DNA of 63,291 nt from Victivallaceae bacterium (GTDB lineage: Bacteria; Verrucomicrobiota; Lentisphaeria; Victivallales; Victivallaceae), in the NCBI GenBank assembly GCA_028717165.1, contig JAQUOK010000001.1:1-63291 (forward strand). Direction: 5' to 3'. This document shows, one piece after another, positions 38,266 through 62,169 of this stretch (within the stretch, counting starts at the first letter, position 1; each line of letters begins with the position of its first letter). Position numbers and translations under genes: made by a program. The notes under the pieces are model-generated. The model had not been told where the DNA came from and did no database searches. It saw nothing but the letters and a program-made list of their open reading frames with translations.

Positions 38266-38335
38266 TATTAACGCTTGGGGCCGTCAACGTTTCTCGTCGC
38301 CGGTCTCAGCGGGAAGCGGCGCTACTGTCATCTTT

Positions 38336-40086: not shown

Positions 40087-40092
40087 TTTGTA

Positions 40093-42263: not shown

Positions 42264-42383
42264 AGATACCTCCCGAATTAAAACCGGCAATTATTATAAA
42301 TTGTTAAAAAGGAAAAATTACCGTAACCCAAAGTAATTATTATAATGCTGATACGGCATCATGGCTTAAATATACGGAATTAA

Positions 42384-45225: not shown

Positions 45226-45353
45226 TGTAAGATAACATAAGCTTAGATATTTTTATAATAATGCTTATATTAATATTTTACAACTTAATCTTATAGGAAT
45301 TTGTTATTTTGACAGAATCTTAAATCTTAAGGTTCAAACAAGGATATTTGCTT

Positions 45354-46379
45354 ATGTCGGACAAGATGACAGCCAGTGAAAGGTTTCGGGCGGTTCTGGA
45401 TTTTTCCCCAACCGACCGCCTGCCGCTCGTCGAATGGGCTCCCTACTGGGATAAAACAAAAGAACGCTGGGAAAAAGAAGGCATGCCGGGGGGAATGGAT
45501 AACGAAGCAATGCAGCGTTATTTCAATCTGGACGTTGTGCTGCAAAATTGGGTAGCGCCGCTTTCCGCCGGAGGCGCGGCGCGCGGAACTGAAGGCGAAC
45601 TGGTTTCCGATGAAGCCGACTACGAAAAACTGCTTGAAGAAGGAAGGCTTTTTTCGGATGAACAGTTGAATGCGGACATTTTGGACAGGTGGGCGGAATG
45701 GGATAAAAAGCGCCGTATACAGGGAGACTCGATCTTAATGCTGACTTTTCTGGGTTTTTTCTGGTTTCCCAGAACTTTGTTTGGCATTGAACCGCATTTC
45801 TACGCTTTTTATGATTGGCCGGAACTGATGCATCGCATGAATCGCGACCTGGCGGAATATAATTTAAAGTGCCTGGAAAGGTTCTGCGGGATCGCCAAAC
45901 CGGATTTTGTTACTTTCGCTGAGGATATGAGCTACAATAACGGCCCGATGCTGTCGGAAAACCTTTTTGACGAATTCATGCTGCCCTGTTACAAAATGCT
46001 GATCCCGCGCCTGAAGGAACTGGATATCAAGGTTATTATCGATTCGGACGGAGATATCACTGAATGTGCGGGCTGGTTCCGTCGGGCCGGAGCCGACGGC
46101 ATGCTGCCGCTGGAGAGGCAGGCTGGGGTAGATATAAATATCCTGCGGAAAAAATACCGCGATATGTGCTGGATCGGGGCTTACGATAAAATGGTCATGA
46201 ATCGCGGCGAAGCCGCAATCAGGAACGAATTCGAACGCTTAATGCCGGTTGCGGAACAAGGCGGCCTGATAATCAGTTGCGATCATCAGACGCCGCCGGG
46301 AGTATCGCTGGAACAATACCGCTGCTATCTTAAATGTTTCCGCGGATATGCCGTTAAAAGAAATCTTTCGCCGCTTTAA
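45354..46379 (+). CDS. uroporphyrinogen decarboxylase (URO-D) family protein (MtaA/CmuA-like, function unknown)
   Basis: N-terminal 'TASERFRAVLDFSPTDRLPLVEW' and 'FAEDMSYNNGPMLS' are typical of URO-D-like proteins. ATG at 45354 follows aagga; the track start is TTG at 45348. Confidence 0.7.
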   Translation: MSDKMTASERFRAVLDFSPTDRLPLVEWAPYWDKTKERWEKEGMPGGMDNEAMQRYFNLDVVLQNWVAPLSAGGAARGTEGELVSDEADYEKLLEEGRLFSDEQLNADILDRWAEWDKKRRIQGDSILMLTFLGFFWFPRTLFGIEPHFYAFYDWPELMHRMNRDLAEYNLKCLERFCGIAKPDFVTFAEDMSYNNGPMLSENLFDEFMLPCYKMLIPRLKELDIKVIIDSDGDITECAGWFRRAGADGMLPLERQAGVDINILRKKYRDMCWIGAYDKMVMNRGEAAIRNEFERLMPVAEQGGLIISCDHQTPPGVSLEQYRCYLKCFRGYAVKRNLSPL

Positions 46380-46977
46380 GCCAGGCGTCGGTGATCAGCT
46401 GATGTCCGGCAAGGGAGGGGTGCACCCCGTCCCAGAGCCAGTATTTCGGCGGCGCTTTTTTGACGGCCGCATTTAAAAGAGACTGGATCGGGACAAACTT
46501 GAAATTGAATTCTTCGGCCAGTTCCCTGACGATTTTGCGGCGCGCTTCGATTTCTTCAAGCCATTCCGCGGATACCGCGCCGAATTCCAGGACAAACGGT
46601 TCGCACAGCACCACTTTTATCCGCGGCAGGACGTTCTGCGTCCAGGTCAGAATTTCATGATAAATGCGGCCGTAGCGTTCAACTTCGACGCCGTTGTCCG
46701 AAGAAAAAGTATGCCAGGTGTCGTTAACTCCGATCAGAATACTCAATACGTCCGGTTTCAGGTTCAGCGCGTCGATCTTCCAGCGGGCGTAAAGATCAAC
46801 GACCCGGTTGCCGCTTATTCCGCGGTTATAAACCTGTATATTTTTATCCGGATGGTCTGCCAGCAGCCGGGCGGCCGTCAGCGCCGGGTAACCGGCTCCA
46901 AGGTCGGTATTGGGTTCTGCTGTTTCCCGGCTTCTGCCGCAGTCCGTAATCGAATCGCCCTGAAAAAGAATTTTCAT
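46354..46977 (-). CDS. SGNH/GDSL-family hydrolase (cytoplasmic, no signal peptide)
   Basis: 'ILFQGDSITD', 'GISGN', 'IGVNDT', 'DGVHPSLAGH'. 207 aa. Confidence 0.85.
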   Translation of the reverse strand: MKILFQGDSITDCGRSRETAEPNTDLGAGYPALTAARLLADHPDKNIQVYNRGISGNRVVDLYARWKIDALNLKPDVLSILIGVNDTWHTFSSDNGVEVERYGRIYHEILTWTQNVLPRIKVVLCEPFVLEFGAVSAEWLEEIEARRKIVRELAEEFNFKFVPIQSLLNAAVKKAPPKYWLWDGVHPSLAGHQLITDAWLKAAKDFF

Positions 46978-48110
46978 TATTTATTTCCTGCTTTTAATTT
47001 GTGGAAAAAATCCAGAAAAGCACCAAACTGATGCTTTTTATTCATTTTGCTGACCATTAAATTACGCGCCTTTTCACCCATTTCCAGACAGGTTTCGGGA
47101 TTTTTCACAGTTTTTTCAATCGCTTCGGCAAATTCTTCGACATTGCCTGCGGCAGTAAGAAATCCGGTTTCTCCGTCAACCACCACCTCCGGAATGCCCG
47201 CGAGGTCGGCGGCGATGACCGGGATCTTCATGCTCATCGCTTCCAGCAGCACATTGGGCAGCCCTTCCTTGTACAGGCTGGGAAACGCCAGTATGTCGAT
47301 GCGTTCAAAAACATAATTCGGTTCACGGGTGAACGGGAAAAACGAAACATGTTCCCGCAAGCCGTAAACTTCCGTAACGGCTTTGAGCATCGCCTCATCC
47401 GGACCCTCGCCGACAAACATGACATGAATGTCCGGAACCCTGTCCGCGTCCAGCAGGTATTTTACCGCCTGCAGCAGAATGATCTGCCCCTTGCGGTTTT
47501 CCATTGCGCCTATCGACCCCAGTACCGGGAAGGAATTTTCCTTTAGCGGATAGCGTTTCAGCGCCTCGGTCTGCCCGGCTTTACTGGCAGTGAAACGGTC
47601 TACTTCGGTTCCCTGGTAAATCAGGGTTATTTTGTCCGCAGGTATTTTATAAATTTCTTCAAGGTATTTTCGGGTAAAATCAGTTATGCAGATAACCTCA
47701 GTCGCAACTTCAGGGGCGGGCAGATAATATTCCCGTTTGTACCACGGGACGATCGAGCCGGTTTTGGGTATCATTATGGTTTGCAAATTGCCGTCCCTGA
47801 TGCATTCCGCCCCGAACTTCACGCAATGAAAACCGTTGCGCGGCGGATGCACCGTGGTAACCGCGACGTCACACGGGGCCAGCCCGGCAATCCAGGCGCT
47901 TTTGTATTTTTCCGGATTTACGGCAATATCGTCAAAGTCATAGCCGTTTACCCGGGCGCCGTATTCGGCACAGGTTTGCGCGACGAAACTCCCGTCCGGC
48001 GCGATTACCGAAACTTCTTCCCCGCCGGCAATAAATTTTTCTACCGCCTCAGTAACCCAGATCTGAGTACCGCCCCGCAGCGGCGTGTCTTCGATAAAAG
48101 CGATATGCAT
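46977..48110 (-). CDS. glycosyltransferase family 4 (GT-B)
   Basis: 'FPSLYKEGLPNVLLEAMSMKIPVIAADLAGIPEVV' (E-x7-E). 377 aa. Confidence 0.88.
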   Translation of the reverse strand: MHIAFIEDTPLRGGTQIWVTEAVEKFIAGGEEVSVIAPDGSFVAQTCAEYGARVNGYDFDDIAVNPEKYKSAWIAGLAPCDVAVTTVHPPRNGFHCVKFGAECIRDGNLQTIMIPKTGSIVPWYKREYYLPAPEVATEVICITDFTRKYLEEIYKIPADKITLIYQGTEVDRFTASKAGQTEALKRYPLKENSFPVLGSIGAMENRKGQIILLQAVKYLLDADRVPDIHVMFVGEGPDEAMLKAVTEVYGLREHVSFFPFTREPNYVFERIDILAFPSLYKEGLPNVLLEAMSMKIPVIAADLAGIPEVVVDGETGFLTAAGNVEEFAEAIEKTVKNPETCLEMGEKARNLMVSKMNKKHQFGAFLDFFHKLKAGNK

Positions 48111-48130
48111 ACTAAATCTCCTGTAAATGG

Positions 48131-49858
48131 TTAATCTCCCCGGCAGAGAACCTTGAAAAATTCCCTGAATTTACGGACGATCATCCCGGTGCCGTAACGG
48201 CTTCGTACCGCTTCCCGGTTATGTTCCCGCCAATCGTCGAAACGTTCGGGATAAAGCAGCAGTTCGGTAACTTTATCGAGAAAGCTTTTTTTGAATTCTC
48301 CTGCAGGAAAGCGCAGATAAAGAATCTGTTCGTTTTCCGGCAGGTCGCTGCCGACCACTTCGTCAAAAACTTCTTCCGGGTAATAACGGCGGCAAACTAT
48401 CGGGACGCCTCCGGCGCTGGATTCGATGATCGGCAGCCCGCGCCCTTCGGTTTCACTGGGAAACAGCACGAGGTCGGCAAGCTGGTAAATCTCCTCTATG
48501 CATAAAGGCTGTAAATTCAGTTTTTCAAAACACGGATGGTTTTCATTGCCGACGGAAAAAACCAAAAATATCCGGTCGGCGTCCGCTTCCGGGAGCTTAC
48601 CGCACAACGCCTGATAGGCTTCCAGAATGTTTTCCAGGTCGTCCTGATGCTCGATCGGCGTCGGCCCGGTTACATGCAGGACTATCTGTTTTGAACGGTC
48701 GGCGAAAAAAGCCTTCGCAAAGGGTTCGTGTTCGAGCAGGGCGGACAGGAGTTCCTCGTCCCGGTCAATATGCTTGCGCAGGATCACCCGGGTCGGCTGC
48801 AGAAAATAGTAAGTTCCCGCCGCCGCCAGATCCAGTTTCAGGCCGTTGCGGTTGCCGCAGGCGACCGGTTTTTCGTCCCGCATCCATGCCGGCAGTTTCG
48901 CCAGATGTTCCCGCACATCGACCGTGGTAATCAGCGGTTCGCCGCCGGAAATAATATAATTCATGCGCGAGCGCACCGATCTGACGTGTTCCGGGCTGGA
49001 ATGAATGAAAAAACTGTCGCTGATCGAAGTGCCGAGTTCAAAAACCCTGCCGGAATCAAAACCGAAACGCGCGACCAGCGTCCGGCTCTGGGGTTGATTT
49101 ATGTTCACCTGAAGCCAGCGGCGGCCGTTCCAGGGGTAAAGCCGGGAAAAAAGCCGGAAAAAAGCATGATTGTCCATATTGCGGAAAAAATGATCGCGGG
49201 GCCCCGCTTCTTCTCCGGGGCGGCGTTCGCTTGCGGGTTTGCCGCCTTCCCAGTAATAATCATGATTTGAACTGATAACGTAAATATCCAGCATTTCGGC
49301 GGCGATGATAAAGCCCAGGGCCACGGCGACATTTCCGGGATTTGACAGAATATTTACGGGGATCGCCAGTTTTATTTTATCAGCGGAAAAATAATCGCCG
49401 AGTTCAAGGGCAAAGTTTTTGGCCTGATCCCATATTTCCTGCGCCATGCGCCGGGATACTTCGCTGCCTTCGGGCATATCTTCGTAGAAAAGTTTGGCGA
49501 ACGGCTGGCCGTCACACCATTTGTCCCAGCCGTTGAAATTATCTATTTTGAAACGCTTCCAGTAATCTTTCAGCACGATATCGGCTTTTTCATGGAAATC
49601 GCCGCCGATAAAATGCAGGGGAATTCCCGGCAGTATATGTTCCAGGCATTCGGCGTATTTGAAAATCTCGATCGAGACGCCGTCTATACCGAAGTCATAA
49701 GTTACAAACGCCGCGCCGTCGGCAAGCCGGGACAGAAATTCCTTTTCCGTTAATTTCGGGACCGGGTCAGGGTTCAGCGCTGCCGGATCAAGAAATTCGG
49801 AAATATCCCGCCAGTCGTTGACCTCGACGCTATTTAGAACAGTTCTCAGTTTTGTCAT
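48131..49858 (-). CDS. glycosyltransferase-like protein with GT4-type C-terminal region and atypical long N-terminal half, 575 aa
   Basis: 'LVLFPSETEGRGLPIIESSAGGVPIV' looks like an E-x7-E region. I do not recognise the first ~380 aa. Confidence 0.7.
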   Translation of the reverse strand: MTKLRTVLNSVEVNDWRDISEFLDPAALNPDPVPKLTEKEFLSRLADGAAFVTYDFGIDGVSIEIFKYAECLEHILPGIPLHFIGGDFHEKADIVLKDYWKRFKIDNFNGWDKWCDGQPFAKLFYEDMPEGSEVSRRMAQEIWDQAKNFALELGDYFSADKIKLAIPVNILSNPGNVAVALGFIIAAEMLDIYVISSNHDYYWEGGKPASERRPGEEAGPRDHFFRNMDNHAFFRLFSRLYPWNGRRWLQVNINQPQSRTLVARFGFDSGRVFELGTSISDSFFIHSSPEHVRSVRSRMNYIISGGEPLITTVDVREHLAKLPAWMRDEKPVACGNRNGLKLDLAAAGTYYFLQPTRVILRKHIDRDEELLSALLEHEPFAKAFFADRSKQIVLHVTGPTPIEHQDDLENILEAYQALCGKLPEADADRIFLVFSVGNENHPCFEKLNLQPLCIEEIYQLADLVLFPSETEGRGLPIIESSAGGVPIVCRRYYPEEVFDEVVGSDLPENEQILYLRFPAGEFKKSFLDKVTELLLYPERFDDWREHNREAVRSRYGTGMIVRKFREFFKVLCRGD

Positions 49859-49994: not shown

Positions 49995-50843
49995 TTATTT
50001 GATGACGCAGGTACGGACAAATTCCGAGGGCGAAAGTCCCAGCCGCCGCTTGAACAGACGGCTGAAGTAATGAACACTCCGGAAACCGCATTTTTCGCTC
50101 GCGGCAGTAACGGAATCGCTTTTCGCCAGGAACAGCCTGGCCATTTTCAGACGGTAATCAATATGGTAATTGACCGGGGAAACCGCGAAATATTCCCTGA
50201 ACAGCTTTGAAAAATAGGTGAAACTGAACCCGGAAACCTTCGCCATCTCTTCAAGCGAGAGGTCACTGGCATAATTCTCTTCGATAAAATCCCGGACCCG
50301 GTTAATCATTTTATAATTGACCGAACACCTTTCTGCCGCACGGTTCCGAAGATGTTCAAACAAGATGGCGATAATCGAAAGCGCTATCGATCTTACCGTC
50401 AACAGATAACCGCTTTCTTTCAGCGTATAAGCGGTAAGCAGTTTTGCAAACAGACTCTCAAGGTGCGGATGATATAGCAGATTGAATTTTCGGGGACAGG
50501 CCGCTTTCAGTCGGTTTTCCGCTTCAGCGTTTCCGGGGCCGAAAAGCGTAACGTGCAGAACATAGACATGCAAAGACTGGTCTTCATCGGCTTTTTCCTG
50601 CTGATAGCTTTCTCCCGGTTTCATGACGACCAGATCACCGGGCTGCAAATTTATCCAGCGATTATTTATCTTCACCGCACCTCTGCCTTCGGTAATGTAC
50701 CAGATGTCAAAATCGTTTTGAATTCTTTCAAACGCGCTGCTTACCCAGCCCTTGTCATCCTTGAAAAAACCGATCGAGTTGACGGCCGGAGCAACGGCTT
50801 CATAAAAACTTTCAGACCACAGCTCAATTGACTGCTTCGGCAT
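49995..50843 (-). CDS. AraC-family transcriptional regulator with N-terminal cupin sensor domain
   Basis: 'WYITEGRGAVKINNRWINLQPGDLVVMKPGE' cupin and C-terminal 'LSLEEMAKVSGFSFTYFSKLFREYF...CGFRSVHYFSRLFKRRLGLSPSEF'. The ATG at 50843 is preferred, because the track's extra 51 N-terminal aa are a translation of AT-rich promoter DNA. Confidence 0.85.
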   Translation of the reverse strand: MPKQSIELWSESFYEAVAPAVNSIGFFKDDKGWVSSAFERIQNDFDIWYITEGRGAVKINNRWINLQPGDLVVMKPGESYQQEKADEDQSLHVYVLHVTLFGPGNAEAENRLKAACPRKFNLLYHPHLESLFAKLLTAYTLKESGYLLTVRSIALSIIAILFEHLRNRAAERCSVNYKMINRVRDFIEENYASDLSLEEMAKVSGFSFTYFSKLFREYFAVSPVNYHIDYRLKMARLFLAKSDSVTAASEKCGFRSVHYFSRLFKRRLGLSPSEFVRTCVIK

Positions 50844-50988
50844 CCGCAACACCCCCAATAACCTGCAAAAATAATATAATGCAAAAAGAAAATAAATTAA
50901 TCTAAATACAAGCACAATATAATATATTATAATAATAGCATAGTAATAAAATATCAACAAAGTCAATTTCAAATAAAGGGTCACGGCG

Positions 50989-52650
50989 ATGGACAATGAT
51001 TTGACATTTATAAGCGAATGGCTTGACAGAGCCTTTAAACTGGCGCTTACCTGGTCTGACGATAACGGGAGAATGTGCGACCGGTATGAAACCGTGTATT
51101 CGGAAAATTTCGCTCCCGCCTGCTGGAGTGTCGTTGCTGCGGGATTATACGTGTTGACGGATGAGAGGAAATATCTTGAATGGACAATGAAATGGGTCAG
51201 GCGCAGCTCGCAACTGATGAAAGAGAATCCGGGCCTGAGAGATTATACATTAGGTTACGCTTCCATGATCTTTCCTGTCCTGCGGGAGAAGTCAGGAGGT
51301 AAAGCGTTAAAGGAAATTCAGGAAGATTATGCAAGTTCATATACAGGTGAAAGGCCCGTATCCGGAGACATGCATATTGCGGCTCTTCAACTGATAGGGG
51401 ATTTATATTGTTCACCCCACCGGGAAGATGCCGCCTTGGAGAGGAGTAAAAAAATCCTTGCGACAATTGAGCGGCGGATCAATGAACTCGGATTTCTTAC
51501 AGATGACAATGCACATGGAAATTCAATCCCTCATATGCTGCTGACATGCAGTATTCTCTCCGTCATTCTTCTTGATGACGACTCCCAAATAAAAGACCGT
51601 GCCTTGTCTGTAATAGAAAAAGTCAATAAATGGCTTCGCCGCTTTAATGGGAATAATTATCTGCCCGTACAGGCGAACAGAAGTTATAATCAAATGTATA
51701 CGTATCCCCTGACGGCGCTGTTGAATTTCATTGAAAACGGACACGACAGTATTGATCGAGTTAGGTTTTTGTGGGAATTTCAAACCCGCTTTGTTGATGA
51801 GAAAGGAATTCTCCGGATTACCCCTAATTATTTATCTTCTTATGCCGGCGCCGGTGTGGAAACTAATTACAACCGCCTGGACAATGACCTTGGGGCCGGT
51901 GCCGTGGGCTGGATCATTCTTCTGCTGCTTGCGTCAAAAAACCGGCAGGACAAAAAACATGAAATAAAAAAAGAAAATGGTATTACAGCTGATAATGACG
52001 CGGGTTTTGCTGTTTTTCACAAGGATAATCAAAGAGTATTCTTCGCTTTGAGGAACCATAAATGGCAGTATCATCTGCCCCTGCAGCCTATATCGATTTG
52101 CTTCTCTCAGCATTTAAATCCCTTTTGCGGGGCCAAAAGAAGCGGAACCAACAATCCTTACACAAAATTAATTGCGGACCTTTCAAAAGTAAATCCGCTG
52201 CTGGAGCCATACTGGGGGATATTCGGGAAAACCGCGGATAACGGCTATGTGATCATGAACGGCGAAGCGACAGCTTGCCCTGACGGCGGCTATAGACTTG
52301 ACGGATGCGGAATCGAAATGGAATTCAGGGTAAAAGCCGAAAACGGTTCGTTATTTTTGCATTATCGCTATACCGTAACAGGAGCGGAGTCGGCGTTTTA
52401 TGCTGTTCCAATATTGCTGTGGGACGGAAAAAATGAACTTCATTATGATATCGCCGGGAATTCGGCGAAACTCCGCTGGCTGGGGAGAGAATACAATTTA
52501 TCCGTTTCAACTCCTGATATTTGGGCCTTATCAATGGAACGTTCTTATTCAACCGGATATGGCCTGAATGGGCATTTTATCATTCCTGTCAACAGACAAG
52601 GCGAATTAACAATAACGTTTGCTGAAACGGCAAATAACGGAGATCAGTGA
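50989..52650 (+). CDS. hypothetical cytoplasmic protein A, 553 aa (unassigned family)
   Basis: Long ORF and first gene of a six-gene operon. No signal peptide or TM helix. The helical-looking N-terminal half and beta-rich C-terminal third are inference only. Confidence 0.7.
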   Translation: MDNDLTFISEWLDRAFKLALTWSDDNGRMCDRYETVYSENFAPACWSVVAAGLYVLTDERKYLEWTMKWVRRSSQLMKENPGLRDYTLGYASMIFPVLREKSGGKALKEIQEDYASSYTGERPVSGDMHIAALQLIGDLYCSPHREDAALERSKKILATIERRINELGFLTDDNAHGNSIPHMLLTCSILSVILLDDDSQIKDRALSVIEKVNKWLRRFNGNNYLPVQANRSYNQMYTYPLTALLNFIENGHDSIDRVRFLWEFQTRFVDEKGILRITPNYLSSYAGAGVETNYNRLDNDLGAGAVGWIILLLLASKNRQDKKHEIKKENGITADNDAGFAVFHKDNQRVFFALRNHKWQYHLPLQPISICFSQHLNPFCGAKRSGTNNPYTKLIADLSKVNPLLEPYWGIFGKTADNGYVIMNGEATACPDGGYRLDGCGIEMEFRVKAENGSLFLHYRYTVTGAESAFYAVPILLWDGKNELHYDIAGNSAKLRWLGREYNLSVSTPDIWALSMERSYSTGYGLNGHFIIPVNRQGELTITFAETANNGDQ

Positions 52651-54500
52651 AAATGAAGGGTTATCCGCTCAAGAAAAAATGGGAACGGTTGCGGACGCAG
52701 GCAGCAACAGCCGAAACAGTTCAGCCCACCGGGATCGATAAATCGTTTTACCTGGACCTGGCCGAAAAGATAGTAAGAACAGCCGTCCCGTGGCAAAGTG
52801 ATGACGGCATGATTATCGATCCTTATTTTCATGCCGAGGCCAATTCCGGAAGCGCGAGATTTGTCGGCGCCCTGGGGCAATTGATCAAAGCGGGGAGGTG
52901 TCTGGATCTCATCGACGTATGTATAAAGAGTTATGAGCATTGTCTCGGCCGTCTGGACGAATTGGCGACCTGTCCGGAATTCTGGACCAAGGAAATGATG
53001 TACGCGTATGAGGCCCTTCACGACAAAATAGAAAAATCCAGACAGCAAAGGTGGCGTGATTTGTGGCTGCGCCATAAGCCCCGGGAGTATTACGCGTGCG
53101 CCGTCAAACAAATGACCAACAATTTCTGGGTTTTTGCCATAACGGGGGAATTTCTGAAAGCCAAACAGGATTTGAACGGCGACCTGGAACTGGTGGACGA
53201 GGGACTGGAAATATTGCTTCGGGATTTCACGGAATACGGTATGTATCGCGACCCCAATGACCCGATAGTCTACGATCTCGTGGTCAAGCAGCAGTTGTTT
53301 TTCCTGCTGGAACAGGGATACCGGGGAAAACATTACGCGGAACTGCGGGAAATCTGTGAAAGAGGGGCTATAAGCTCGCTTCTGACCCAGTCCGTGACCG
53401 GGGAAACGCCGTTCGGCGGCCGCAGCAACCAGTATCATTGGGTGGAAGGACACTTCTGCTGTCTGACGGAAAGCGCGGCCGCATATTTTAAAGCGCAGGG
53501 TGATACGCTGACGGCGGGGATATTCAAAAGAGCGGCAAGAACAGCGGCTCTTTCCACGAAAAGCTGGATATTGGATATGGAACCCTACCGCCATCTCAAA
53601 CAGGGATTTCATCCCGCGACTTTCCATGGTATAGACAGTTACGGCAATATCGGCATTTATGGAATTCTGGCGGCCAGCCTTCTCGGAACAGCGTTCCACA
53701 TCGCCGACGATTCAGTGGCGGAAACACTTACCCCGGCGGAGGCCGGAGGCTATGTTTTCGCCTTGTGGCCGGAATTCCATAAGGTATTCGCTTCCTGCGG
53801 CGGCTATCATGCGGAACTGGATACCAAAGCCGATCATCATTATGACGCCACCGGTTTCGGGAGACTGCATAAACAGGGAATGCGGCCGGAAAGCATTTTA
53901 TCGGCAAGCATTGCGAGCGCTCCGAATTATGTCAAGAACGCCAAAGGCGCGGCTCATAACGATTCCCTCCTCTGGAAACCGGAAGGCAGCAAATCCGCCT
54001 ATACCAGACTGGACTCCTTTGAAAAAGAAAATTCCGACAACCTGACAATTGGGCCGGAATGGACGGATACCGCCGGGAAAAAATGGCGGCTGGCCGATTT
54101 CGAAGAAGAGATCAAAGAAGTCAAATTGGACGTCCTGGAGGAAAGCGGAGACCAAGTCGAATTCAGGGTCATTTACAAAGGCGATCTGGGCGGCTGTTCC
54201 AAGGTTACGGAGAAATACCGGATCAGCAGCGAAGGAGTTCATTATGAAGCGGAACTTGACCGGGCCGATTTCGCTTTGCGGCTGCTGGCGCCGCTGATTA
54301 TAACCGATGGCATGGAAACGTCGGACATTACAACGGATGCGGAGGGATTCCGGGTCAGTTACCGGAACGACCGTTTCAGTATCCGCGCTCAAGAAGGAAA
54401 ATTCCGGATTTCCGACGAAAATCCCGCCTCAAACCGTAACGCCGTATATCGTGTTGGAGTGATTGAGGATAATAAAATATTCATTCGGAGCGAAAAATAA
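52647..54500 (+). CDS. hypothetical cytoplasmic protein B, 617 aa (unassigned family)
   Basis: 4-nt overlap with protein A (GTG 52647; alternative ATG 52653). Shares the 'W-x-(S)DDG-x3-D-x-Y' N-terminal motif with protein A. Confidence 0.7.
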   Translation: MKMKGYPLKKKWERLRTQAATAETVQPTGIDKSFYLDLAEKIVRTAVPWQSDDGMIIDPYFHAEANSGSARFVGALGQLIKAGRCLDLIDVCIKSYEHCLGRLDELATCPEFWTKEMMYAYEALHDKIEKSRQQRWRDLWLRHKPREYYACAVKQMTNNFWVFAITGEFLKAKQDLNGDLELVDEGLEILLRDFTEYGMYRDPNDPIVYDLVVKQQLFFLLEQGYRGKHYAELREICERGAISSLLTQSVTGETPFGGRSNQYHWVEGHFCCLTESAAAYFKAQGDTLTAGIFKRAARTAALSTKSWILDMEPYRHLKQGFHPATFHGIDSYGNIGIYGILAASLLGTAFHIADDSVAETLTPAEAGGYVFALWPEFHKVFASCGGYHAELDTKADHHYDATGFGRLHKQGMRPESILSASIASAPNYVKNAKGAAHNDSLLWKPEGSKSAYTRLDSFEKENSDNLTIGPEWTDTAGKKWRLADFEEEIKEVKLDVLEESGDQVEFRVIYKGDLGGCSKVTEKYRISSEGVHYEAELDRADFALRLLAPLIITDGMETSDITTDAEGFRVSYRNDRFSIRAQEGKFRISDENPASNRNAVYRVGVIEDNKIFIRSEK

Positions 54501-54502
54501 TC

Positions 54503-55552
54503 ATGAATACAGGAAACTTCGTTTCCAGATATTTATTGGAAGGGACTTGGAACAGTTTTTGCAGAACGGACGGACTCATAACGCCGAATTATGCCTTTAT
54601 CGATGCTCTTCAGGCAGCCGGTTTCACTCATCTCGTCATTTTCTGGGGGGAGAGAGAAGATTTTTCCGAGGCTTGGAAAAAATTAATCTTCTATGCGCAC
54701 GAGAAGCACATAAAAGTGATAAAAGGGCTTTATTTATTTTGGGGAACCGAGGATGGATGGCAATTTCCTGCCGTCCCCCGGAACCTCATGAAATGGGATA
54801 AGGAGAAAAAAATCCATATCGTCTGCCCCGGCAATACCGGAGCCCAAACATTTTGGAGATCCTATTATGGAAAGCTCTGTTCAGAATTTGAATTTGATGG
54901 GTTCATGCTGGAAACGGCGAGAACCGTCGATAAAGAATGTCATTGCGATAAGTGCCGTGAAAACAATATATATGCACAGGACCGTATAATCATAAACCGG
55001 TTTCTGAGCGAAATTCCGGAATCGGACCGGGAGTTCTCATTTGTTGCGGCGGCGCCGCAATCCGGGCAGGATACGCTTCTCATGATGAATGAATATAAAG
55101 CGATTGATCAACGGGTAAAATATTTTTTCAATTCCCGGATCAATTCATTGGAAGGACTTCAGTCCTGGATGAACATGGGGGAACGTTTCAGTCCCTTATA
55201 TCGAACTGGTCGCTTCTTTCTGTTTCCGGACGGAAAACCCAGAAAAAATCAGGCCGCGTTCATTTGCCGTTCTTTCAAAACGGCGGCCGGAGCCGGGAAA
55301 ACTGCCGTGGCGGTGGAATACCGGCTCAATGGCGGCCGGCACTATCCGTTGTCTTCAGACAGAAAATCTGTTGTAATTCCGTTTCGTCCGATTCCGGCAA
55401 GCCTTTTACTCATCGGGAAGGCTGCTGAAAATCCTTGCTTATCGTCTTCGGAGCAAAAAGCTGTTTTGAATGAAATCCTGAAACGTACCGTAAACGATTT
55501 AAATGATCCGCTGCTTCATTATTTCGGACTTAGCGGACCGAATGAAGCCTGA
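54503..55552 (+). CDS. hypothetical cytoplasmic protein C, 349 aa (possible TIM-barrel glycosidase-like; CHCDKC cluster)
   Basis: Starts 2 nt after the protein B stop. 'GFMLETARTVDKECHCDKCREN' contains C-x-C-x2-C. The fold assignment is speculative. Confidence 0.65.
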   Translation: MNTGNFVSRYLLEGTWNSFCRTDGLITPNYAFIDALQAAGFTHLVIFWGEREDFSEAWKKLIFYAHEKHIKVIKGLYLFWGTEDGWQFPAVPRNLMKWDKEKKIHIVCPGNTGAQTFWRSYYGKLCSEFEFDGFMLETARTVDKECHCDKCRENNIYAQDRIIINRFLSEIPESDREFSFVAAAPQSGQDTLLMMNEYKAIDQRVKYFFNSRINSLEGLQSWMNMGERFSPLYRTGRFFLFPDGKPRKNQAAFICRSFKTAAGAGKTAVAVEYRLNGGRHYPLSSDRKSVVIPFRPIPASLLLIGKAAENPCLSSSEQKAVLNEILKRTVNDLNDPLLHYFGLSGPNEA

Positions 55553-55570
55553 AACATCAAGGAGGTTAAA

Positions 55571-56785
55571 GTGGATACCGGGACAATTGACATTGTTCAG
55601 AACTATGAGTGGAATGATGTGACAGATAAAGGGACTTACTGTTTTGCGAACGGGTACCTGAACATGCGGGGCGATATCGCCTGTAAGCGGGAACTGGGCA
55701 GAGCAATTTGCGGCGCCGAAAGCGCTTTGGAAATAACTTTCCGGGTAATTCTGGGCAAATCCTGCTTTATTAATTGGGAAGACTCGAACGGCGCCATTGC
55801 GTTCCGTTGCATGATCGATGCGGACGGACAAATCAAATTTACCGACGGAGAAGGGAAAAATATAATTGATACCGGCTTGTATTTGACTTTTCACCGGGGT
55901 ATCCCGTTCAATAATCCCAGGTTTAGAAAAAGCTATACCGTCATTTCCGACGAACATGTCCTGAATTTTCGACAGTTCGATCTGAGGACCGGCGAATTTA
56001 TGGTTGTTTTCGACAATCAGGTTCCGGTCAAAATTACCATCCCGCCGCGGAAGAACGCCGATTTTCTGAAGTCCGTCGAAGTGCAGGCCGGGCCGTCCGC
56101 GGAACAGGCCGACTTCCGTTTGAAAAGCTATCGGGAATATTTCAAAACTGAACTTATTGCCGAAGATATTTTTCAACTGAATTGGGAGGCGCTTCCTGAA
56201 ACCGTCTGGGGAACCCCTTATGACAATATTACCGGTTCCGAGTTTCGACCTAAATTCGGGCGCTGGCTGGAAGTTACCACCGGTTACGGTTATGTAAAAA
56301 CCCGGATACCTCCACTGCGCAAAGGCTATGTGGAATTTGATTTAATGACTGAAGACATTGAAAAAGAATCGGTGTTCCTGATAGAAGAAGCGTCCGAGGA
56401 AATAAAAAACGGCGTGGCCTGCTGCGGTATTTATCATGGTAAATTCTGTTTTTTCAACGAAGTCCCCCCGGTGTTTTCAGAAATCCGGTATGCGGAAGAC
56501 CTCGAACCGCTTCCGGGCAAAGTATATTTGCTCAGGCTCGAATGGGATTGCGATTTGAGATTCTGCAGTGTAAGCATTAACGGAATACCGGTCAGATTCG
56601 GCGGCAGGATCAGGCAGAATATTCTGAAACTTCCGAAAAACGGAGTCGACACTCTTACTATCCATCCCGGTTTATACGGAGCCCGGCTTTCCGAACTTGA
56701 AAGCCGCGGAAATGTGAAAGAAACGGCTGCCCCTTTACATAAGAGTTACTGGGGAGCTTTCAGAATAAAAAATAAGGAATGGTAA
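55571..56785 (+). CDS. hypothetical cytoplasmic protein D, 404 aa (beta-rich, unassigned family)
   Basis: GTG start 5 nt after AAGGAGG. No signal peptide. Confidence 0.65.
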   Translation: MDTGTIDIVQNYEWNDVTDKGTYCFANGYLNMRGDIACKRELGRAICGAESALEITFRVILGKSCFINWEDSNGAIAFRCMIDADGQIKFTDGEGKNIIDTGLYLTFHRGIPFNNPRFRKSYTVISDEHVLNFRQFDLRTGEFMVVFDNQVPVKITIPPRKNADFLKSVEVQAGPSAEQADFRLKSYREYFKTELIAEDIFQLNWEALPETVWGTPYDNITGSEFRPKFGRWLEVTTGYGYVKTRIPPLRKGYVEFDLMTEDIEKESVFLIEEASEEIKNGVACCGIYHGKFCFFNEVPPVFSEIRYAEDLEPLPGKVYLLRLEWDCDLRFCSVSINGIPVRFGGRIRQNILKLPKNGVDTLTIHPGLYGARLSELESRGNVKETAAPLHKSYWGAFRIKNKEW

Positions 56786-56787
56786 TC

Positions 56788-57771
56788 ATGAAATTCGGTT
56801 TTATCGGCGTCGGCGATTATGCGGCGACCCACCTTGCGGCTATTGAAAATGACCCGGAATTGGAACTGGTCTCGGTATTCGATGTCAATCCGGAAGCCGC
56901 CGGCAATACCGCCAGGCGTTTCGGGTGCGGAATTGCCGGTTCGCTAAAGGAAATCACGGAGAACGGAAAGATCGACGCGGTGATAATATCCTCTCCCAAT
57001 TATCTGCATTTTGAACATTTCAAGGCGTGCGCCGCGAACGGCAAACATGTTTTAATGAATATTCCCGCGTTTACCGATGCCGCCGAAGCGGCGGAAATGG
57101 TAGATATCGTAAAACGGGAAAAGATAATATTCATGCCCGGACACAATACCAGGAAAAATCCGGCGATCGTTGAATTGAAAAAACTTCTCGACACCGGCGG
57201 TATCGGGGACGTCCATATGGCGGACAGCGTGGTCTCATGCGACCGCGGCTACCGGCTTTCCCCCGCCGAATGGCGGTTCTCGGCCGCAAAGGCGCCGCTG
57301 CTGCCTTTCACCCAGATGGGAATAGTATCCATTGATTTAATTCTCTATTTCTGGGGATGTCCTGAAAGTGTAAGCGCTTTCATGACGAAACGGGACGGGG
57401 CCGGGGATGCTCCCGACAGCGGCGTGGTTATATGCAAATATGCCGACGGCAGGATCGCCGAAATCGGCTGTTCCTATGTTTGTTCAGGCAGCTATGCGCT
57501 TACTTTCCGGGGCAGTAAAGGAAGCGTTGTCTGGGATCTTATGGATGAAAATTCAATTACCCTTAAACAGCGGCAGGTAAGCAGGAAAAGTTTCCCCCGG
57601 ATATGCGAACAGCATTGCGAGTTGCGGGAATTCTGCGACTGTATCAGGAATGGGAACGAACCGGGCGTCAATGCGCTGGACGCCTACAATCTTGCGGAAT
57701 TTTACGACTGCATTGCTCAATCGGTACGCAGCGGACAGGCAATAAAATTCAGGAACTACAGTCATGGATAA
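56788..57771 (+). CDS. Gfo/Idh/MocA-family NAD(P)-dependent oxidoreductase
   Basis: 'MKFGFIGVGDYAATHL', 'DAVIISSPNYLHFEHFKACAANGKHVLMN'. The ATG at 56788 is preferred over the track's 56779. Confidence 0.88.
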   Translation: MKFGFIGVGDYAATHLAAIENDPELELVSVFDVNPEAAGNTARRFGCGIAGSLKEITENGKIDAVIISSPNYLHFEHFKACAANGKHVLMNIPAFTDAAEAAEMVDIVKREKIIFMPGHNTRKNPAIVELKKLLDTGGIGDVHMADSVVSCDRGYRLSPAEWRFSAAKAPLLPFTQMGIVSIDLILYFWGCPESVSAFMTKRDGAGDAPDSGVVICKYADGRIAEIGCSYVCSGSYALTFRGSKGSVVWDLMDENSITLKQRQVSRKSFPRICEQHCELREFCDCIRNGNEPGVNALDAYNLAEFYDCIAQSVRSGQAIKFRNYSHG

Positions 57772-58300
57772 GCTGCTTATCATTCAGGGCAGTCCCCGGA
57801 AAAAGGGCAATACGGAATTCTGCTGCAACTATGTCCGTGAACGACTTGCAGCAAAGTTTGAGGCGGATATCATCAATCTTTATGATTATCGCATTCGGCA
57901 TTGCACCGGCTGCCGCGGCTGCATGAAAAAAGGCAGCTGTGTCATTCAGGATGATGATTTCGAGTTTATCCGGAAACAGGTGTTCGCGGCCGACATAATT
58001 ATTCAGGCTTCCCCGGTTTACTGGTACAGTCCACCGGGAATAATGAAAGATTTCATAGACCGGATGCATGGAACCTATATCTGTAAACGGCCGCTGAACG
58101 GAAAACGCGGCGCTATGATTACGGTTGCGACTGAGGCAGGGTTTGAACATACCGCAGAAATCCTCGCCTGCTGGCTGCGCCAGTACGGCGCTGAAATAGT
58201 GGAAAATGCCAGGATAAACGCCTGCGAACCTGGAGACGTCGCCGCAAACCCCGCCAATCTCACGGAACTGAACCGGCTTTGTGAAAGCCTTATGGTCTGA
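57764..58300 (+). CDS. flavodoxin-like FMN reductase / iron-sulfur flavoprotein family protein
   Basis: 'LLIIQGSPRKKGNTE', Cys cluster 'CTGCRGCMKKGSC', 'ASPVYWYSPPG'. 8-nt overlap with the oxidoreductase gene. Confidence 0.82.
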   Translation: MDKLLIIQGSPRKKGNTEFCCNYVRERLAAKFEADIINLYDYRIRHCTGCRGCMKKGSCVIQDDDFEFIRKQVFAADIIIQASPVYWYSPPGIMKDFIDRMHGTYICKRPLNGKRGAMITVATEAGFEHTAEILACWLRQYGAEIVENARINACEPGDVAANPANLTELNRLCESLMV

Positions 58301-58379: not shown

Positions 58380-59444
58380 TCAGTCCATCTGTTTGCGGCG
58401 GTAGGATTCGACTTCCCAGTTCTCGATGAAATCGCGCGCCGCATCGTCAAGATAGTTTATTCCGCCGAAGGCTTCGGCAAGCTGCTTTATCAAAGCGCCG
58501 TCTTTAGCCAGTTCCAGCGCCAGACAGGCTCCTGTGAGGTTTGGCCCTATGGAATATACCGTTCCCGGAGTTTCCAGGATTTTCGGATAATAGCCTTTTG
58601 CTTCTTTGAATTTCCGTATCGACTGTTCTGAAATACCGCCTTTGTGGACAAAGGATTTCATATAGACGATATGATCCGGGGAAATCGGGCCGTCCGCGGC
58701 TGAAAAAGCCTTTGCGCTTATTACCGCCTGCATTTCCGCGGCCGGAAACGCTTTTTTGAAAACCTCAAAATCACCGGGATTGAGTTCGATATCCCGTTCT
58801 TCCAGAGTCAGGGGAATATTCGCGGCCGCATATTCCTTCTTCAGTTCGGAAAAAATAAAAGCATAGATTTCCTGTATTCTTTCCGGCGAATTCCCGGCGA
58901 CAAAGACCCCGTGGTTTTTCAGGAACACGATTTCCGGCTGTCTGCCGTACCGTTTACGGTAATCCGCTGTTTTGTCCCGTACCGCCTGATAAAGAGTGAT
59001 CCCCGGATCAATATACCCCATCCATAAAGCCTCAGGGAAAAGTTTCCCGCAGACGGCTTCGCCGTTTTTCGCGCAGGTCATGCCGTTAACCGGCGCCGGA
59101 TGAGTGTGAATGACATAGCGGCAGTCAAAAAGGTTATGCAGCGGGGTTTCCACCGACGGCCGCCCGGTTGAACCGGGACATACGGCAGCGGCCATGATAT
59201 CCTTGGCCAGCGCTTCCCGCTGCCGGACGTCGCCGGAAACGGAAACTTCATCCATTTTCATGATTTTTGCGCGTTCCAGCGTTACAAATCTGTCCGGCGT
59301 AATTGTCCCCATTGTCGAACCGGAGGGTTTCACCCAGATCGTATTTTCGGTTTTGACCGACGAATTCCCGCCGCCGCCCTTGACGTATTCGCCGCTGCCG
59401 AATCTGCGGGTCAGTTCAGTAAGGGTATTGAGTAAAGCTTCCAT
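58380..59444 (-). CDS. class II aldolase/adducin-family protein, putative rhamnulose-1-phosphate aldolase (resembles the aldolase half of the long bifunctional YuxG-type enzymes)
   Basis: 'GGGNSSVK' and 'YVIHTHPAPVNGM'. 1-nt overlap with rhaA. 354 aa. Confidence 0.75.
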   Translation of the reverse strand: MEALLNTLTELTRRFGSGEYVKGGGGNSSVKTENTIWVKPSGSTMGTITPDRFVTLERAKIMKMDEVSVSGDVRQREALAKDIMAAAVCPGSTGRPSVETPLHNLFDCRYVIHTHPAPVNGMTCAKNGEAVCGKLFPEALWMGYIDPGITLYQAVRDKTADYRKRYGRQPEIVFLKNHGVFVAGNSPERIQEIYAFIFSELKKEYAAANIPLTLEERDIELNPGDFEVFKKAFPAAEMQAVISAKAFSAADGPISPDHIVYMKSFVHKGGISEQSIRKFKEAKGYYPKILETPGTVYSIGPNLTGACLALELAKDGALIKQLAEAFGGINYLDDAARDFIENWEVESYRRKQMD

Positions 59445-60712
59445 TAACCGTTTCTCCTGTTCAAGACTTTCTTTTCATATTTTTCGACTTCCGCCAGCCA
59501 GTCAAGCCCGGCCGGGACTCCCTGCTGCGCGCAGTAATAATCCCAAACCCCGCTCAGCGGGAAGAATTTCTGTTCTTCCAGGATTGCCAGGCGTGAAGTA
59601 TAATTGCCCGCGTTTTCGAGCCTTTTGAGTTTAGCGGACGGTTCCAGCAGCGCCGCGCAGAGCGCTTTCAGCATATTCCTGCTCCCGATAACCCAGGCGG
59701 CTATCCGGTTGATCGAGGCGTCGAAGAAATCCAGCCCGATATGGACCCGGTCCTGGAATTTGTTGCGGATTATTTCCTGCGCGATAGCCAGCAGTTCCTC
59801 GTTGTAGGTTACGACATGGTCGCTGTCCCACCTGACCGGGCGGCTGACGTGCAGGAGAATTTCATCGAGAAATTGCAAGACCGAAGATATTTTATCGGAA
59901 ACGGCTTCAGTCGGGTGAAAATGCCCGGTATCAAGACAAAGCAGAAGATTGTTTTTAACCGCGTAGCCCATGTAGAATTCGTGAGAGCCGATCACGCAGC
60001 TTTCGGAACCGAGCCCGAACAATTTGCTTTCAACCGCGTCAAGATGGTATTTCGGGTCGAGTTTTTCAGCACACATTTCGTCAAGCGAAGCCTTGAGGCG
60101 GGCACGGGCGCCGTTCCGGTCAACCGGAATGTCCTTGAAGCCGTCCGGTATCCAGATATTCATCACGCAGGGGGAACCGAGTTCTTTGCCGATGTATTCG
60201 CTGATCCTGCGGCAGGCTTTGCCGTGCGCTATCCAGAAATTGCGGATCCCGTCATCATTGCTGCTGAGGGTAAAGCCGCTGTCCGCTTTAGGGTGCGCAA
60301 AAAAAGTCGGGTTGAAATCCATGCCCATGCCTTTTGATTTCGCCCATTCAACCCAGTTTTTAAAGTGTTCCGGCCTGATTCGGTCGCGGTCAACAAATTC
60401 GCCGCCGCTTTCCAAGTAACAGGCATGCAGGTTAAGACGGTGTTTGCCCGGGATCAGCGACAGGGCTTTGGCGAGGTCGGCACGCAGTTCCTCCGGGGTA
60501 CCGGCGCGGCCCGGATAATTCCCGGTCGCCATGATCCCGCCGCCGCTGCTGCCGGGCTCGGCCACTTCAAAACCGCCGACGTCGTCCCCCTGCCAGCAAT
60601 GGATCGAGACCGGAATTTCCTGCAACTGCGCCAGAGCCGCGTCCGTATCCACTCCGATTGCGGCATAGCGTTCTTTGGCTGCCTGATAAGCTTCGTTAAC
60701 TGCCTTATTCAT
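59444..60712 (-). CDS. rhaA: L-rhamnose isomerase
   Basis: Long collinear identity to E. coli RhaA as I recall it: '[11 protein letters not shown]', 'TGNYPG', '[12 protein letters not shown]', '[16 protein letters not shown]', '[20 protein letters not shown]'. Confidence 0.95.
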
Positions 60713-62169
60713 TTTCCGCTCCTGATTTGTTGAAAATTCCGCCAGGCTTTATTCCAGGCGGACATATTTCCCGGTTTATAAGTATCGATTTCAAAAGAGT
60801 CCGCAATTATTTTTCTCGCCGCCGCCGGGTCTTTAATATGCCCCAGCGCGATAGCCTGAACAATGAGGTTGCCCGCCGCCGTTCCCTCGCACGGCCCCGC
60901 CAAAACCGGCAGCCCGGTCGCGTCGGCGGTGATTTGGCAAAGCAGCTTATCCTGACAGCCGCCGCCGATAACGTGAATACGGTTGATTTCCTGTTTCTGA
61001 ATGTCCCTTAACTGTTCCAGGGTTTCCTTATAGAGAAAACCGAGCCCTTCCAGGGCACAGCGGACATACGCGCCGTCGCTTTGCGGCGGGCGCTGTCCGG
61101 TCGCCAGACAATATTCGTCAATGGCGGTCTTCATGCATTCGGGATTGAGGAATCCCGGATTGTTGACGTCGATAAAGGTGCGGAACGGTTCTGCCTCGCG
61201 GGCAATGTTTTCCAAATCAGTATAGGAATAGTCTTTCGTAAAACCGTTTTTCAAACCGCGGACAAGCCACAGCCCCATAATGTTCTTCAATAAACGGAAA
61301 GTCCCGGCAACTCCGCCTTCGTTGGTAAAATTATATTCCCGCGCTGCCTCGCTGCAGACTGCGCTTTTCGTTTCGATCCCCATCAGCGACCAGGTGCCGG
61401 AACTTATATATGCCCAGTCCCGGCCTTCAGCGGGAACGGCGGCGACGGCGGACCCGGTATCATGGGTGGCGGGCAGGATCACCGATACCGCCGGCAGGCC
61501 GGTTTTTTCCTGAACGGAAGAAAGCAGCGGGCCCAGCACGGTCCCCGGCAGGCGCGGCCTTTCAAAAAGCCCCCGGTCTATGCCAAGCGCGGCAAGCAAG
61601 GCGCCGTCCCAATCGCAGGTGCCGCTGTTCAGGAGCTGGGTAGTGGTCGCATTGGAATACTCATTGGCCTTAATTCCGGTCAGGCGGAAATTCAGATAAT
61701 CCGGGATCATCAGAAAACGTTTTGCCCGGCTGATATCCCCGTTTTTCCGTGCCGCCCATAATTGATAAAGCGTATTGAACTGCAGAAACTGGATTCCGGT
61801 TTTGGCGTAAATATCACGTTTCGGCACCAGGCTGAAGAATTTCTCCATCAGCCCGTCCGTTCGCGAATCGCGGTAGGCGCTCACCGGACAGGCGATCCGG
61901 TCGTTTTCGTCAAGCAGGACATAGTCACAGCCCCAGGTGTCAATACCGATCGAATCCGGCGGGGCGTCGAGCTGCCGCGCCGAAATTTCCAGTCCTTTGA
62001 GGATTTCTGCGAAAAGCGCCTCGACATCCCAGCGGCAATGGCCGTTTTCCTGCCGCATAGCGTTGGTGAAACGGAATGTTTCATCTAAAACCAGAACAGA
62101 ACCGTCAAAGCTGCCGTGAATTATCCGGCCGCTCCCGGCGCCGATATCGACTGCCAAATAATTACACAT
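60709..62169 (-). CDS. rhaB: rhamnulokinase (FGGY kinase family)
   Basis: '[10 protein letters not shown]', '[14 protein letters not shown]', 'YRDSRT', '[13 protein letters not shown]', 'SSGTWSLMG', 'NEGG', 'LKNIMGLWL', 'IHVIGGGCQ'. 4-nt overlap with rhaA. Confidence 0.93.

Follow-up and report, generated by a model that had tools for sequence, protein, structure and literature searches.

What does an operon do when four of its six products belong to no named protein family? This question is raised by a cluster of six genes, here called A to F, in the first 63,291 nucleotides of the Victivallaceae bacterium contig JAQUOK010000001.1 (this whole stretch is the window in what follows, and homologous loci fetched from other genomes carry L numbers). 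A preliminary description of the sequence had proposed an intracellular, redox-assisted pathway, opened by 3-keto oxidation, for an imported and possibly rhamnose-containing oligosaccharide. The reading that we favor, with a probability of about 0.55, is that the operon, under AraC control, serves the breakdown in the cytoplasm of an imported acidic oligosaccharide that contains uronate, through new lyase-fold families. The genes and elements concerned are the following, with protein lengths in amino acids (aa).

49995-50843, minus strand: AraC/XylS-type regulator, 282 aa, cupin effector domain and two HTH_AraC repeats, divergent from the operon
50844-50988: divergent control region, 145 bp, AT-rich
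50989-52650, plus strand: A, 553 aa
52647-54500, plus strand: B, 617 aa, GTG start
54503-55552, plus strand: C, 349 aa
55571-56785, plus strand: D, 404 aa, GTG start
56779-57771, plus strand: E, 330 aa, Gfo/Idh/MocA-family protein, predicted to bind NAD
57764-58300, plus strand: F, 178 aa, Isf-like flavodoxin-fold protein, its start overlapping the end of E
52661-56766, plus strand: B-C-D cassette, the blastn block shared with L031

The six genes are a real, conserved operon with an AraC regulator. Six plus-strand open reading frames (ORFs) were recovered where they had been described, with the same tight junctions: -4 nt for A/B, +2 for B/C, +18 for C/D, -7 for D/E (+2 from an internal ATG) and -8 for E/F, the sequence AAGGAGG standing immediately 5' of D at 55559-55565. 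The AT-rich divergent spacer of about 145 bp toward the AraC/cupin regulator also holds, provided that the regulator starts at the ATG at 50843 (MPKQSIELW...), the plausible start; a TTG-start ORF at 49995-50996 was discarded as over-extended, an artefact of ORF listing. The regulator has the AraC/XylS layout of an N-terminal cupin followed by a C-terminal double helix-turn-helix (PF12833, PF00165, PF02311, PF07883), with Pfam matches to HTH_18 (6e-19), HTH_AraC (7e-19) and AraC_binding (5e-9), and an orthologue with 76% identity occupies the same divergent position in the Victivallales loci L006 and L031. The Victivallales contig L031 carries the same six genes and regulator in another order (GH42, divergent AraC, A-E-F-B-C-D), and this locus, together with the pairing of A and E described below, bears out the expectation that the gene set is co-conserved. 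Alignment of the AraC/A spacers of the window and L031 revealed a conserved TAATATAATGCAAA block (window 50875-50895), which may be a promoter or operator element, and other conserved A/T-rich blocks. A promoter and terminator consensus scan of the control region did no better than chance, and direct repeats were absent from it. No PADLOC defence family and no Rfam RNA family was matched.

We then asked whether A to D could be assigned to any described family. The single proteins were searched against Pfam, NCBIfam and PDB sequences, and their family profiles were also searched against PDB; neither the proteins nor the profiles found a match, as the preliminary description had anticipated when it left A to D unplaced. 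In particular, A, B and their profiles matched no described polysaccharide lyase (PL) family by sequence, either as a Pfam model (Hepar_II_III_N/C, Lyase_8 and others) or as a PDB chain. The description of the products as cytoplasmic is in line with a crude hydrophobicity heuristic, by which signal-peptide-like N-termini were found in none of 20 A sequences, in none of the C and D families, and in 3 of 66 B-family members. An operon built largely from uncharacterised families, as had been claimed, is thus what the searches support.

Structure prediction gave a much clearer picture of A and B. The AlphaFold model of A (20 homologues; pLDDT 81.9, pTM 0.88) has helices over residues 6-316 and strands over 331-547, forming an (alpha/alpha) toroid (1-316) and a beta-sandwich (330-547), while that of B (66 homologues; pLDDT 93.8, pTM 0.94) has helices over 9-366 and strands over 369-616. 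Foldseek comparison of A with the PDB placed GAGase VII and GAGase II at the head of the list, with the PL35 structure 8khw first (E = 4e-10, TM 0.58), followed by PL33 BtPL33HA, PL17, PL8 chondroitin AC and hyaluronate lyases, dermatan-sulfate epimerase (DS-epimerase) 1 and PL15 Atu3025, all at about 10% identity. For B the best match was BcPL35 (9o3q, E = 2e-10), then PL15 (3a0o) and DS-epimerase (6hzn), with further PL35, PL8, PL33, PL12, PL17 and PL40 entries. The top 30 to 40 matches of each protein are nearly all uronate lyases, together with DS-epimerase (rank 3 for B, rank 12 for A). Lower in the list of B come GH154/glucuronate dehydratase, GH88/105 and GH146/127, which cover the toroid alone (TMq about 0.3). 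A and B are therefore predicted, from these models, to have the toroid plus beta-sandwich architecture of the polysaccharide lyase class, and the helical N-terminal and beta-rich C-terminal domains guessed from the sequence are borne out.

A and B are also related to each other. The N-terminal motif common to both, W-SDDNGRMCDRY in A and WQSDDGMIIDPY in B, had been reported from the letters alone; it reflects true remote homology, because hhalign aligned the A family with the 66-sequence B profile at a probability of 97.4% (E = 1.2e-11, 474 columns). Against a shallow alignment of three B sequences the probability was only 5%, so that the homology surfaced with the deep profile. A second common motif is R-S-x-N-Q. 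These profiles make A and B distant paralogues within a single superfamily that has no name. In the toroid plus beta-sandwich lyases a catalytic Tyr/His and a charge neutraliser (Asn/Arg/Glu) are expected in the groove between the domains. Candidate catalytic residues are H129, H182, R231, Y294-N295-R296, H357, Y361, H362 and R384 among the positions invariant in the A family, where Cys45 is also invariant, and N159, Y209 and R259 among those invariant in the B family, with Y200, E267, H378 and R406 near-invariant. In PL35 enzymes, Tyr, His, Arg and Glu act in the interdomain groove (PMC12269599). The A and B families each retain Tyr, His, Arg, Asn and Glu among their invariant residues.

The distribution of A is narrow. 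Its family comprises 21 clusters among 5.8e9 proteins, all unnamed, and was found in 26 of 185,579 species genomes; these are without exception metagenome-assembled genomes (MAGs), from Latescibacterota, Gemmatimonadota, Opitutaceae/Opitutae, Verrucomicrobiia and Victivallaceae. Sequence continues past A in 24 of the species loci, which are the testable ones and come from four or five phyla, and in 24/24 an E-type gene directly follows, at a distance that is mostly between -24 and +48 bp; only in the window does B-C-D separate A from E. E is the obligate genomic partner of A. In every locus of the Planctomycetes-Verrucomicrobia-Chlamydiae (PVC) group, F comes after E (L003/L005, L006/L031, L036), and F is not present in A-E loci outside PVC. 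In about 17 loci of Latescibacterota/Gemmatimonadota, A-E is joined by C and D, and there the order is C, a DUF6785/6784 membrane protein, D, a heparinase II/III-like gene, S-methyl_trans, A and E.

Is E a canonical member of its family? The protein shows the N-terminal Rossmann domain and C-terminal alpha/beta domain required of the Gfo/Idh/MocA family, with Pfam matches to PF01408 GFO_IDH_MocA (1.4e-23), PF22725 (1.7e-19) and PF02894 (3e-13), so that the assignment of the operon-terminal redox pair stands on this side. In the Gfo/Idh/MocA family, the lysine of an EKP motif and an Asp/His pair form the catalytic set, as known from studies of GFOR, IDH and AFR. We compared 26 E-type sequences by alignment with YcjS of E. 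coli and two Gfo/Idh/MocA controls from L034. Results showed that the E family keeps GxGxxA and Asp35 (at the end of beta2, where it selects NAD), but EKP has given way to N-[IV]-P (to EEP in two sequences from Verrucomicrobiia), and none of the 26 has the D-x3-H pair, F-x-Q-M-[GA]-[IV]-[IV] standing at that position. Conserved residues of E include H122, R125, W170 and R171. On the contrary, YcjS, a D-glucoside 3-dehydrogenase (CEKP, D-I-G-I-H), and both controls retain the two motifs. The closest solved relative of E is 3db2, an uncharacterised structural-genomics protein, and among its best matches, which are weak, are levoglucosan dehydrogenase, inositol dehydrogenase, DgpA and UDP-GlcNAc(A) 3-dehydrogenases. 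Its PDB matches include the oxidoreductase entries 3q2k/3q2i, which we take to be WlbA, although the result table gives no such name. All its NCBIfam matches fall far under the cut-offs, those to BT_2158/2159 reaching 23-24 bits against cut-offs of 650-750.

The other half of the pair, F, matched PF03358 FMN_red (3e-24) and carries a C-x2-C-x2-C-x5-C motif (CTGCRGCMKKGSC at residue 47), kept at residue 47-48 in four orthologues, including those of L003, L031 and L036. A flavodoxin-like FMN_red domain with a compact CX2CX2CX4-7C motif fits the Isf type, as the preliminary description had it; the cofactors, FMN and a 4Fe-4S-type cluster, are predicted from these features.

C and D are, by the same searches, true orphans with clear conserved motifs. 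A 17-sequence alignment of the C family has Cys108, Glu137 and Cys146-x-Cys148-x2-Cys151 invariant, that is, a C-x37-C-x-C-x2-C pattern, the Glu standing 9 residues upstream of the last three cysteines, and the four cysteines are a probable Zn site. The structural Zn site of the GH42 enzyme Gal42 is made of Cys113/153/155/158, and its acid/base residue is Glu148 (PMC8573354). The suggestion that C resembles GH42 holds at the metal-site motif only: the four-cysteine pattern matches, but the Glu137 is preceded by Leu or Ile rather than Asn, NEY and the conserved Met-Glu are absent, none of the 17 family members matched PF02449 (GH42) or any other glycosidase family in Pfam at E<=10, and the C-family profile found no GH42 chain in the PDB. 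The partial GH42 gene of L031 had no match in plasmids by tblastn. For D, which the preliminary description had likened to a tandem jelly-roll protein, 16 sequences share invariant S-D-E-H (126-129), D-T-x3-H-P-G (360-367) and a C-terminal W-G-x-F-R. Word-based searches returned only one close relative of C and three clusters for D. In L031, in L034 and in about 16 loci of Latescibacterota/Gemmatimonadota, D has B or C as a direct neighbor. Profile-profile comparison of C and D with the DUF4861/GH88 fusion protein P0145 was negative, and D proved unrelated in the same kind of comparison to the RidA-domain proteins of about 400 aa that are found beside A elsewhere.

In contrast to the small A family, B belongs to a large one, with 714 representative clusters at E<1e-3, of which 308 at E<1e-30, all unnamed in databases, and with neither a Pfam model nor a solved structure. 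The fusion partners of B-type domains are GH88/GH105-type domains (two cases), DUF4861, CBM96, a galactose-binding domain of the agarase type, a GDSL esterase (P0102) and GT2. One such fusion, in the cultured Termitidicoccus mucosus, shares its locus with a GH78 rhamnosidase, an esterase, an SSF transporter and a LacI regulator; for another, the locus includes GH2, a sulfatase and GH3.

The B-C-D block is also a cassette with its own history, because it is 86.9% identical in DNA to L031 6447-10555 over 4115 nt (blastn) while the flanks reach only 69% (AraC-A) and 64% (E-F). The block sits between A and E in the window and after F in L031, which suggests a recent exchange or insertion of the three-gene module. 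In L034, a B-D pair shares its operon with KDG kinase (PfkB) and KDPG aldolase, with which uronate catabolism ends. This long operon (L034 1-14000; B homologue at 55% and D homologue at 48% identity) also encodes three Amidohydro_2 proteins, DegT and class III aminotransferases (Aminotran_3), a GNAT protein, a 2-hydroxyacid dehydrogenase and Gfo/Idh/MocA proteins, and it looks like a candidate amino-uronate catabolic route.

We also looked at the genes that surround A-E in other genomes. Heparinase II/III-like genes adjoin A-E in most non-PVC loci and in L036; their products are not relatives of A or B that could be recognised by profile, hhalign giving a probability of 0.1%. A sulfatase, an MFS transporter, a BNR_4 protein, GH42, a GH36/31-type glycosidase and DUF6785 membrane proteins are found near A-E in other loci, and in L036 a DegT aminotransferase stands directly upstream of A. 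The carbohydrate-related setting that had been proposed is consistent with these neighbors and with the fusions of B, which are of the carbohydrate-active enzyme (CAZyme) type. Taken together, the context points to acidic, uronate-containing glycans. As for the substrate, there are hints of rhamnose/uronate types (rhamnogalacturonan I, ulvan, gum arabic) or of glycosaminoglycan (GAG)-like and amino-uronate types.

Three further kinds of neighbor recur. A 650-aa DUF6785 + DUF6784 protein, presumably membrane-bound, is encoded between C and D in Latescibacterota/Gemmatimonadota loci; it may supply the transporter that the operon lacks. In Opitutaceae and Gemmatimonas MAGs, A-E has as its immediate neighbor a protein of about 400 aa whose central domain is RidA/YjgF (Ribonuc_L-PSP). 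Genes for TIM barrels of the Zn/thiol-methyltransferase type recur near A or B homologues; among them, the uroporphyrinogen-decarboxylase-like (URO-D-like) genes of the PVC loci and the window were considered as one orthologous partner family, and this was rejected, as they are only distantly related to each other. The coordinates are given here.

DUF6785 + DUF6784 protein: L001 3201-5168, L012 3111-5078, L008 19160-21103
RidA-domain proteins of about 400 aa: L021 8752-9945, L022 8644-9951, L024 6589-7782, L026 4444-5652, L007 5729-6934
PF02574 S-methyl_trans, between the heparinase-like gene and A: L001, L008, L012 (about 9000-9980 in most)
PF02574 S-methyl_trans, upstream of the heparinase-like gene: L028 777-1721
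URO-D-like genes: window 45348-46379, L003 7600-8748, L037 11118-12197

Within the window itself, the following features flank the operon or lie farther upstream.

58380-62169, minus strand: RhaB (FGGY kinase), RhaA and a class II aldolase, convergent with the operon
58380-59444, minus strand: class II aldolase that follows RhaA, 354 aa, Pfam match over residues 8-188 and a C-terminal extension that has no match
46354-49858, minus strand: GDSL/SGNH esterase (207 aa) and two GT4-type glycosyltransferases (377 and 575 aa, the second weakly matched)
44248-46379: second AraC/URO-D pair, beyond the GDSL/GT4 genes from the operon regulator
43313-44227: ORF of 304 aa, which had no Pfam match
35560-42290: two 2-oxoacid:ferredoxin oxidoreductase sets and a phenylacetate-CoA-ligase-like AMP-binding gene
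8642-11989: protein of 1115 aa with Laminin_G_3, CBM9 and a GH123-like catalytic domain, another glycan-degrading gene

The 2-oxoacid:ferredoxin oxidoreductase sets and the AMP-binding gene are consistent with a strictly anaerobic host, which probably belongs to Victivallales, B, C and D being 80-90% identical to Victivallales MAG proteins. The GDSL esterase gene lies 3 kb upstream of the operon regulator. A typical RhaD has about 274 aa, compared with the 354 aa of the aldolase after RhaA. We asked whether the proximity of the rhamnose genes indicates a conserved functional link, as had been supposed from their abutting the operon. The rha genes are convergent with it and stand beside no other fetched A, B, C or D locus, so that a link by adjacency was rejected. 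What remains of the supposition is a weaker, indirect association with rhamnose and uronates, through the B fusions to GH88/GH105 and GDSL domains and through the locus with the GH78 rhamnosidase.

How could the six products work together? In the reading that we favor, A and B would remove the C5 proton from a uronate and then, where their two domains meet, split or in some other way convert the sugar through chemistry of the beta-elimination type. E would convert the product of A, most likely by reducing a keto or unsaturated uronate through a non-canonical catalytic set, or might instead be an NAD-binding partner of A. F could carry electrons for E in PVC bacteria that are strict anaerobes, and C (with its putative Zn-Cys4 site) and D would carry out accessory steps. 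Several observations weigh against this proposal. The likeness of A and B to lyases is one of fold, at about 10-13% identity and TM 0.5-0.58, and their catalytic residues are candidates picked by conservation. The two proteins lie outside Pfam, NCBIfam and PDB families, and an existing CAZy family that has neither a Pfam model nor a structure is conceivable for them. The assignment of E as a reductase is weak, because the acid/base residues usually coupled to hydride transfer are missing. The operon contains no GH88/GH105, KduI/KduD, KdgF or transporter gene; E, D or C might stand in as non-orthologous replacements for GH88/105, KduI, KduD and KdgF. Finally, a plain uronate-lyase route does not explain the DegT, Aminotran_3, RidA-domain, GNAT and S-methyltransferase/URO-D-type neighbors.

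A bolder form of the proposal is that A and E (with F in anaerobes) constitute a new two-protein system for an undescribed uronate route, and that B, C and D are further new CAZyme families; we regard this as doubtful. One variant would be a reaction dependent on NAD and flavin that reduces or isomerises the 4,5-unsaturated product, replacing GH88/105, KduI and KduD, and the other an NAD-assisted elimination on a sugar outside the classical lyase substrates. In the literature we found no described pairing of a lyase with a Gfo/Idh/MocA protein, no URO-D-type anaerobic sugar demethylation, and no matching new PL family.

Other explanations have to be weighed against the uronate-lyase reading. 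The nearest to it would leave the fold assignment as it is and change the chemistry: A and/or B might prime the substrate, for enzymes whose genes lie elsewhere, as a C5-epimerase, a dehydratase of the GH154 type, or a Cys/Glu-based (alpha/alpha)6 hydrolase as in GH127/146 and GH88/105. The rank of DS-epimerase 1 in both Foldseek lists, the lower-ranking dehydratase and hydrolase matches of B and the invariant Cys45 of A speak for it, as does the precedent of BcGDH, which indicates that toroid enzymes formerly named hydrolases may be dehydratases (PMC12269599). We nevertheless consider it rather unlikely, considering that the best and most numerous matches over both domains are true lyases and that the hydrolase and dehydratase matches are confined to the toroid. 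The pathway of the preliminary description, in which E oxidises a glycoside at C3 (as do YcjS, BT2158/2159, LgdA and DgpA), A to D cleave and process the 3-keto product, and F re-oxidises the cofactor, seems improbable to us. The identity of the weak best matches of E, the overlap of E and F in every PVC locus and the adjacent rhamnose catabolic genes are what one would cite for it; however, both the EKP lysine and the Asp/His pair, kept by YcjS and the controls, are gone from the whole E family, the NCBIfam matches of E are far under their cut-offs, no xylose-isomerase-like (AP_endonuc_2) lyase/hydratase partner was found by Pfam among A to D, the rha adjacency is not conserved, and A-E persists outside PVC even where F does not. 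Oxidative initiation by E is thereby weakened.

The aminotransferase-type neighbors raise the possibility of an amino-uronate or amino-sugar glycan route, in which E would work with transaminase- or deaminase-type partners, whose genes lie close by in other genomes, to interconvert keto and amino groups as WlbA/WlbC do, and the lyase-fold proteins would release amino-uronates. The DegT gene directly upstream of A in L036, the DegT, Aminotran_3 and GNAT genes in the L034 B-D operon, the RidA-domain proteins that abut A in Opitutaceae and Gemmatimonas loci, and the UDP-GlcNAc 3-dehydrogenase and 3q2k/3q2i among the matches of E all fit such a route, yet neither the window operon nor its Victivallales counterpart encodes such a partner and the objection drawn from the active site of E holds here too, which makes it quite improbable. 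A non-carbohydrate pathway, for example for terpenoids or another small molecule, with toroid-fold cyclase-like proteins, is hardly credible: squalene-hopene and type II terpene cyclases do appear low in both Foldseek lists, but they match the toroid only (E about 1e-4), and the neighbors and fusions are overwhelmingly of the CAZyme type.

If A and B do act on acidic glycans, as the uronate-lyase reading has it, they would found one or two new lyase-fold families, and since the B family exceeds 700 representative clusters, this would put a name to many genes now called hypothetical in glycan loci of Verrucomicrobiota, Lentisphaerota, Latescibacterota and Gemmatimonadota. The invariant pairing of A with E, and the rewired site of E, would make a concrete case for new chemistry downstream of uronate lyases, and the E lineage would show a large oxidoreductase family changing its mechanism. 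The carriers are nearly all uncultured; the B family in Termitidicoccus mucosus gives an experimental entry.

To place the operon among known systems, we compared each component with its closest described relatives. A and B share their two-domain order with the PL35/PL33 GAG lyases (GAGase II/VII, BcPL35, BtPL33HA), the PL8/12/15/17/21/39/40 class and DS-epimerase 1, the likeness to the PL35/PL33 class having a Foldseek probability of 1.0 with E about 1e-10, and both groups are found in acidic-glycan loci. They differ from that class in their low sequence identity, in matching no Pfam family or PDB sequence, in being apparently cytoplasmic and, for A, in being paired with an atypical Gfo/Idh/MocA gene. 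The anhydrofructose pathway is a precedent for pairing a lyase with a Gfo/Idh/MocA reductase, and GH109 enzymes have the Gfo/Idh/MocA fold. In one polysaccharide utilization locus of Bacteroides caccae, a PL35 works beside GH109 (PMC12269599).

E shares the Rossmann N-terminal domain and the C-terminal alpha/beta domain of YcjS, LgdA, DgpA, WlbA and 1,5-anhydrofructose reductase and lacks their EKP lysine and D-x3-H. The YcjS/YcjR, BT2157-2159, LgdA-B-C and DgpA-B-C systems combine a canonical 3-dehydrogenase with an AP_endonuc_2 partner, and the operon has neither. C has the four-cysteine pattern of GH42 and an upstream Glu comparable to Glu148, but with its 349 aa it is devoid of the trimerisation and C-terminal domains, of PF02449 and of the NEY and ME motifs. 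F has the flavodoxin-like domain and CX2CX2CX5C motif of Isf from Methanosarcina and of FMN_red proteins; unlike Isf, it is encoded downstream of, and overlapping, a Gfo/Idh/MocA gene in a glycan operon, and it has no close solved relative. Finally, the canonical route for unsaturated uronates (GH88/GH105, KdgF, KduI, KduD, KdgK, Eda) follows the logic expected here, from lyase product to keto-deoxy-uronate to KDG, whereas of its enzymes the operon has no GH88/105, KduI, KduD or KdgF, and KDG kinase and KDPG aldolase were seen only with the B-D pair of L034. The kind of system, a regulator-controlled glycan catabolic operon with lyase-fold enzymes, is therefore a known one; its components are not, and the new parts would be two unnamed lyase-fold families, two orphan proteins and a lineage of Gfo/Idh/MocA proteins whose active site is rewired and which is strictly tied to one of these lyase-fold families.

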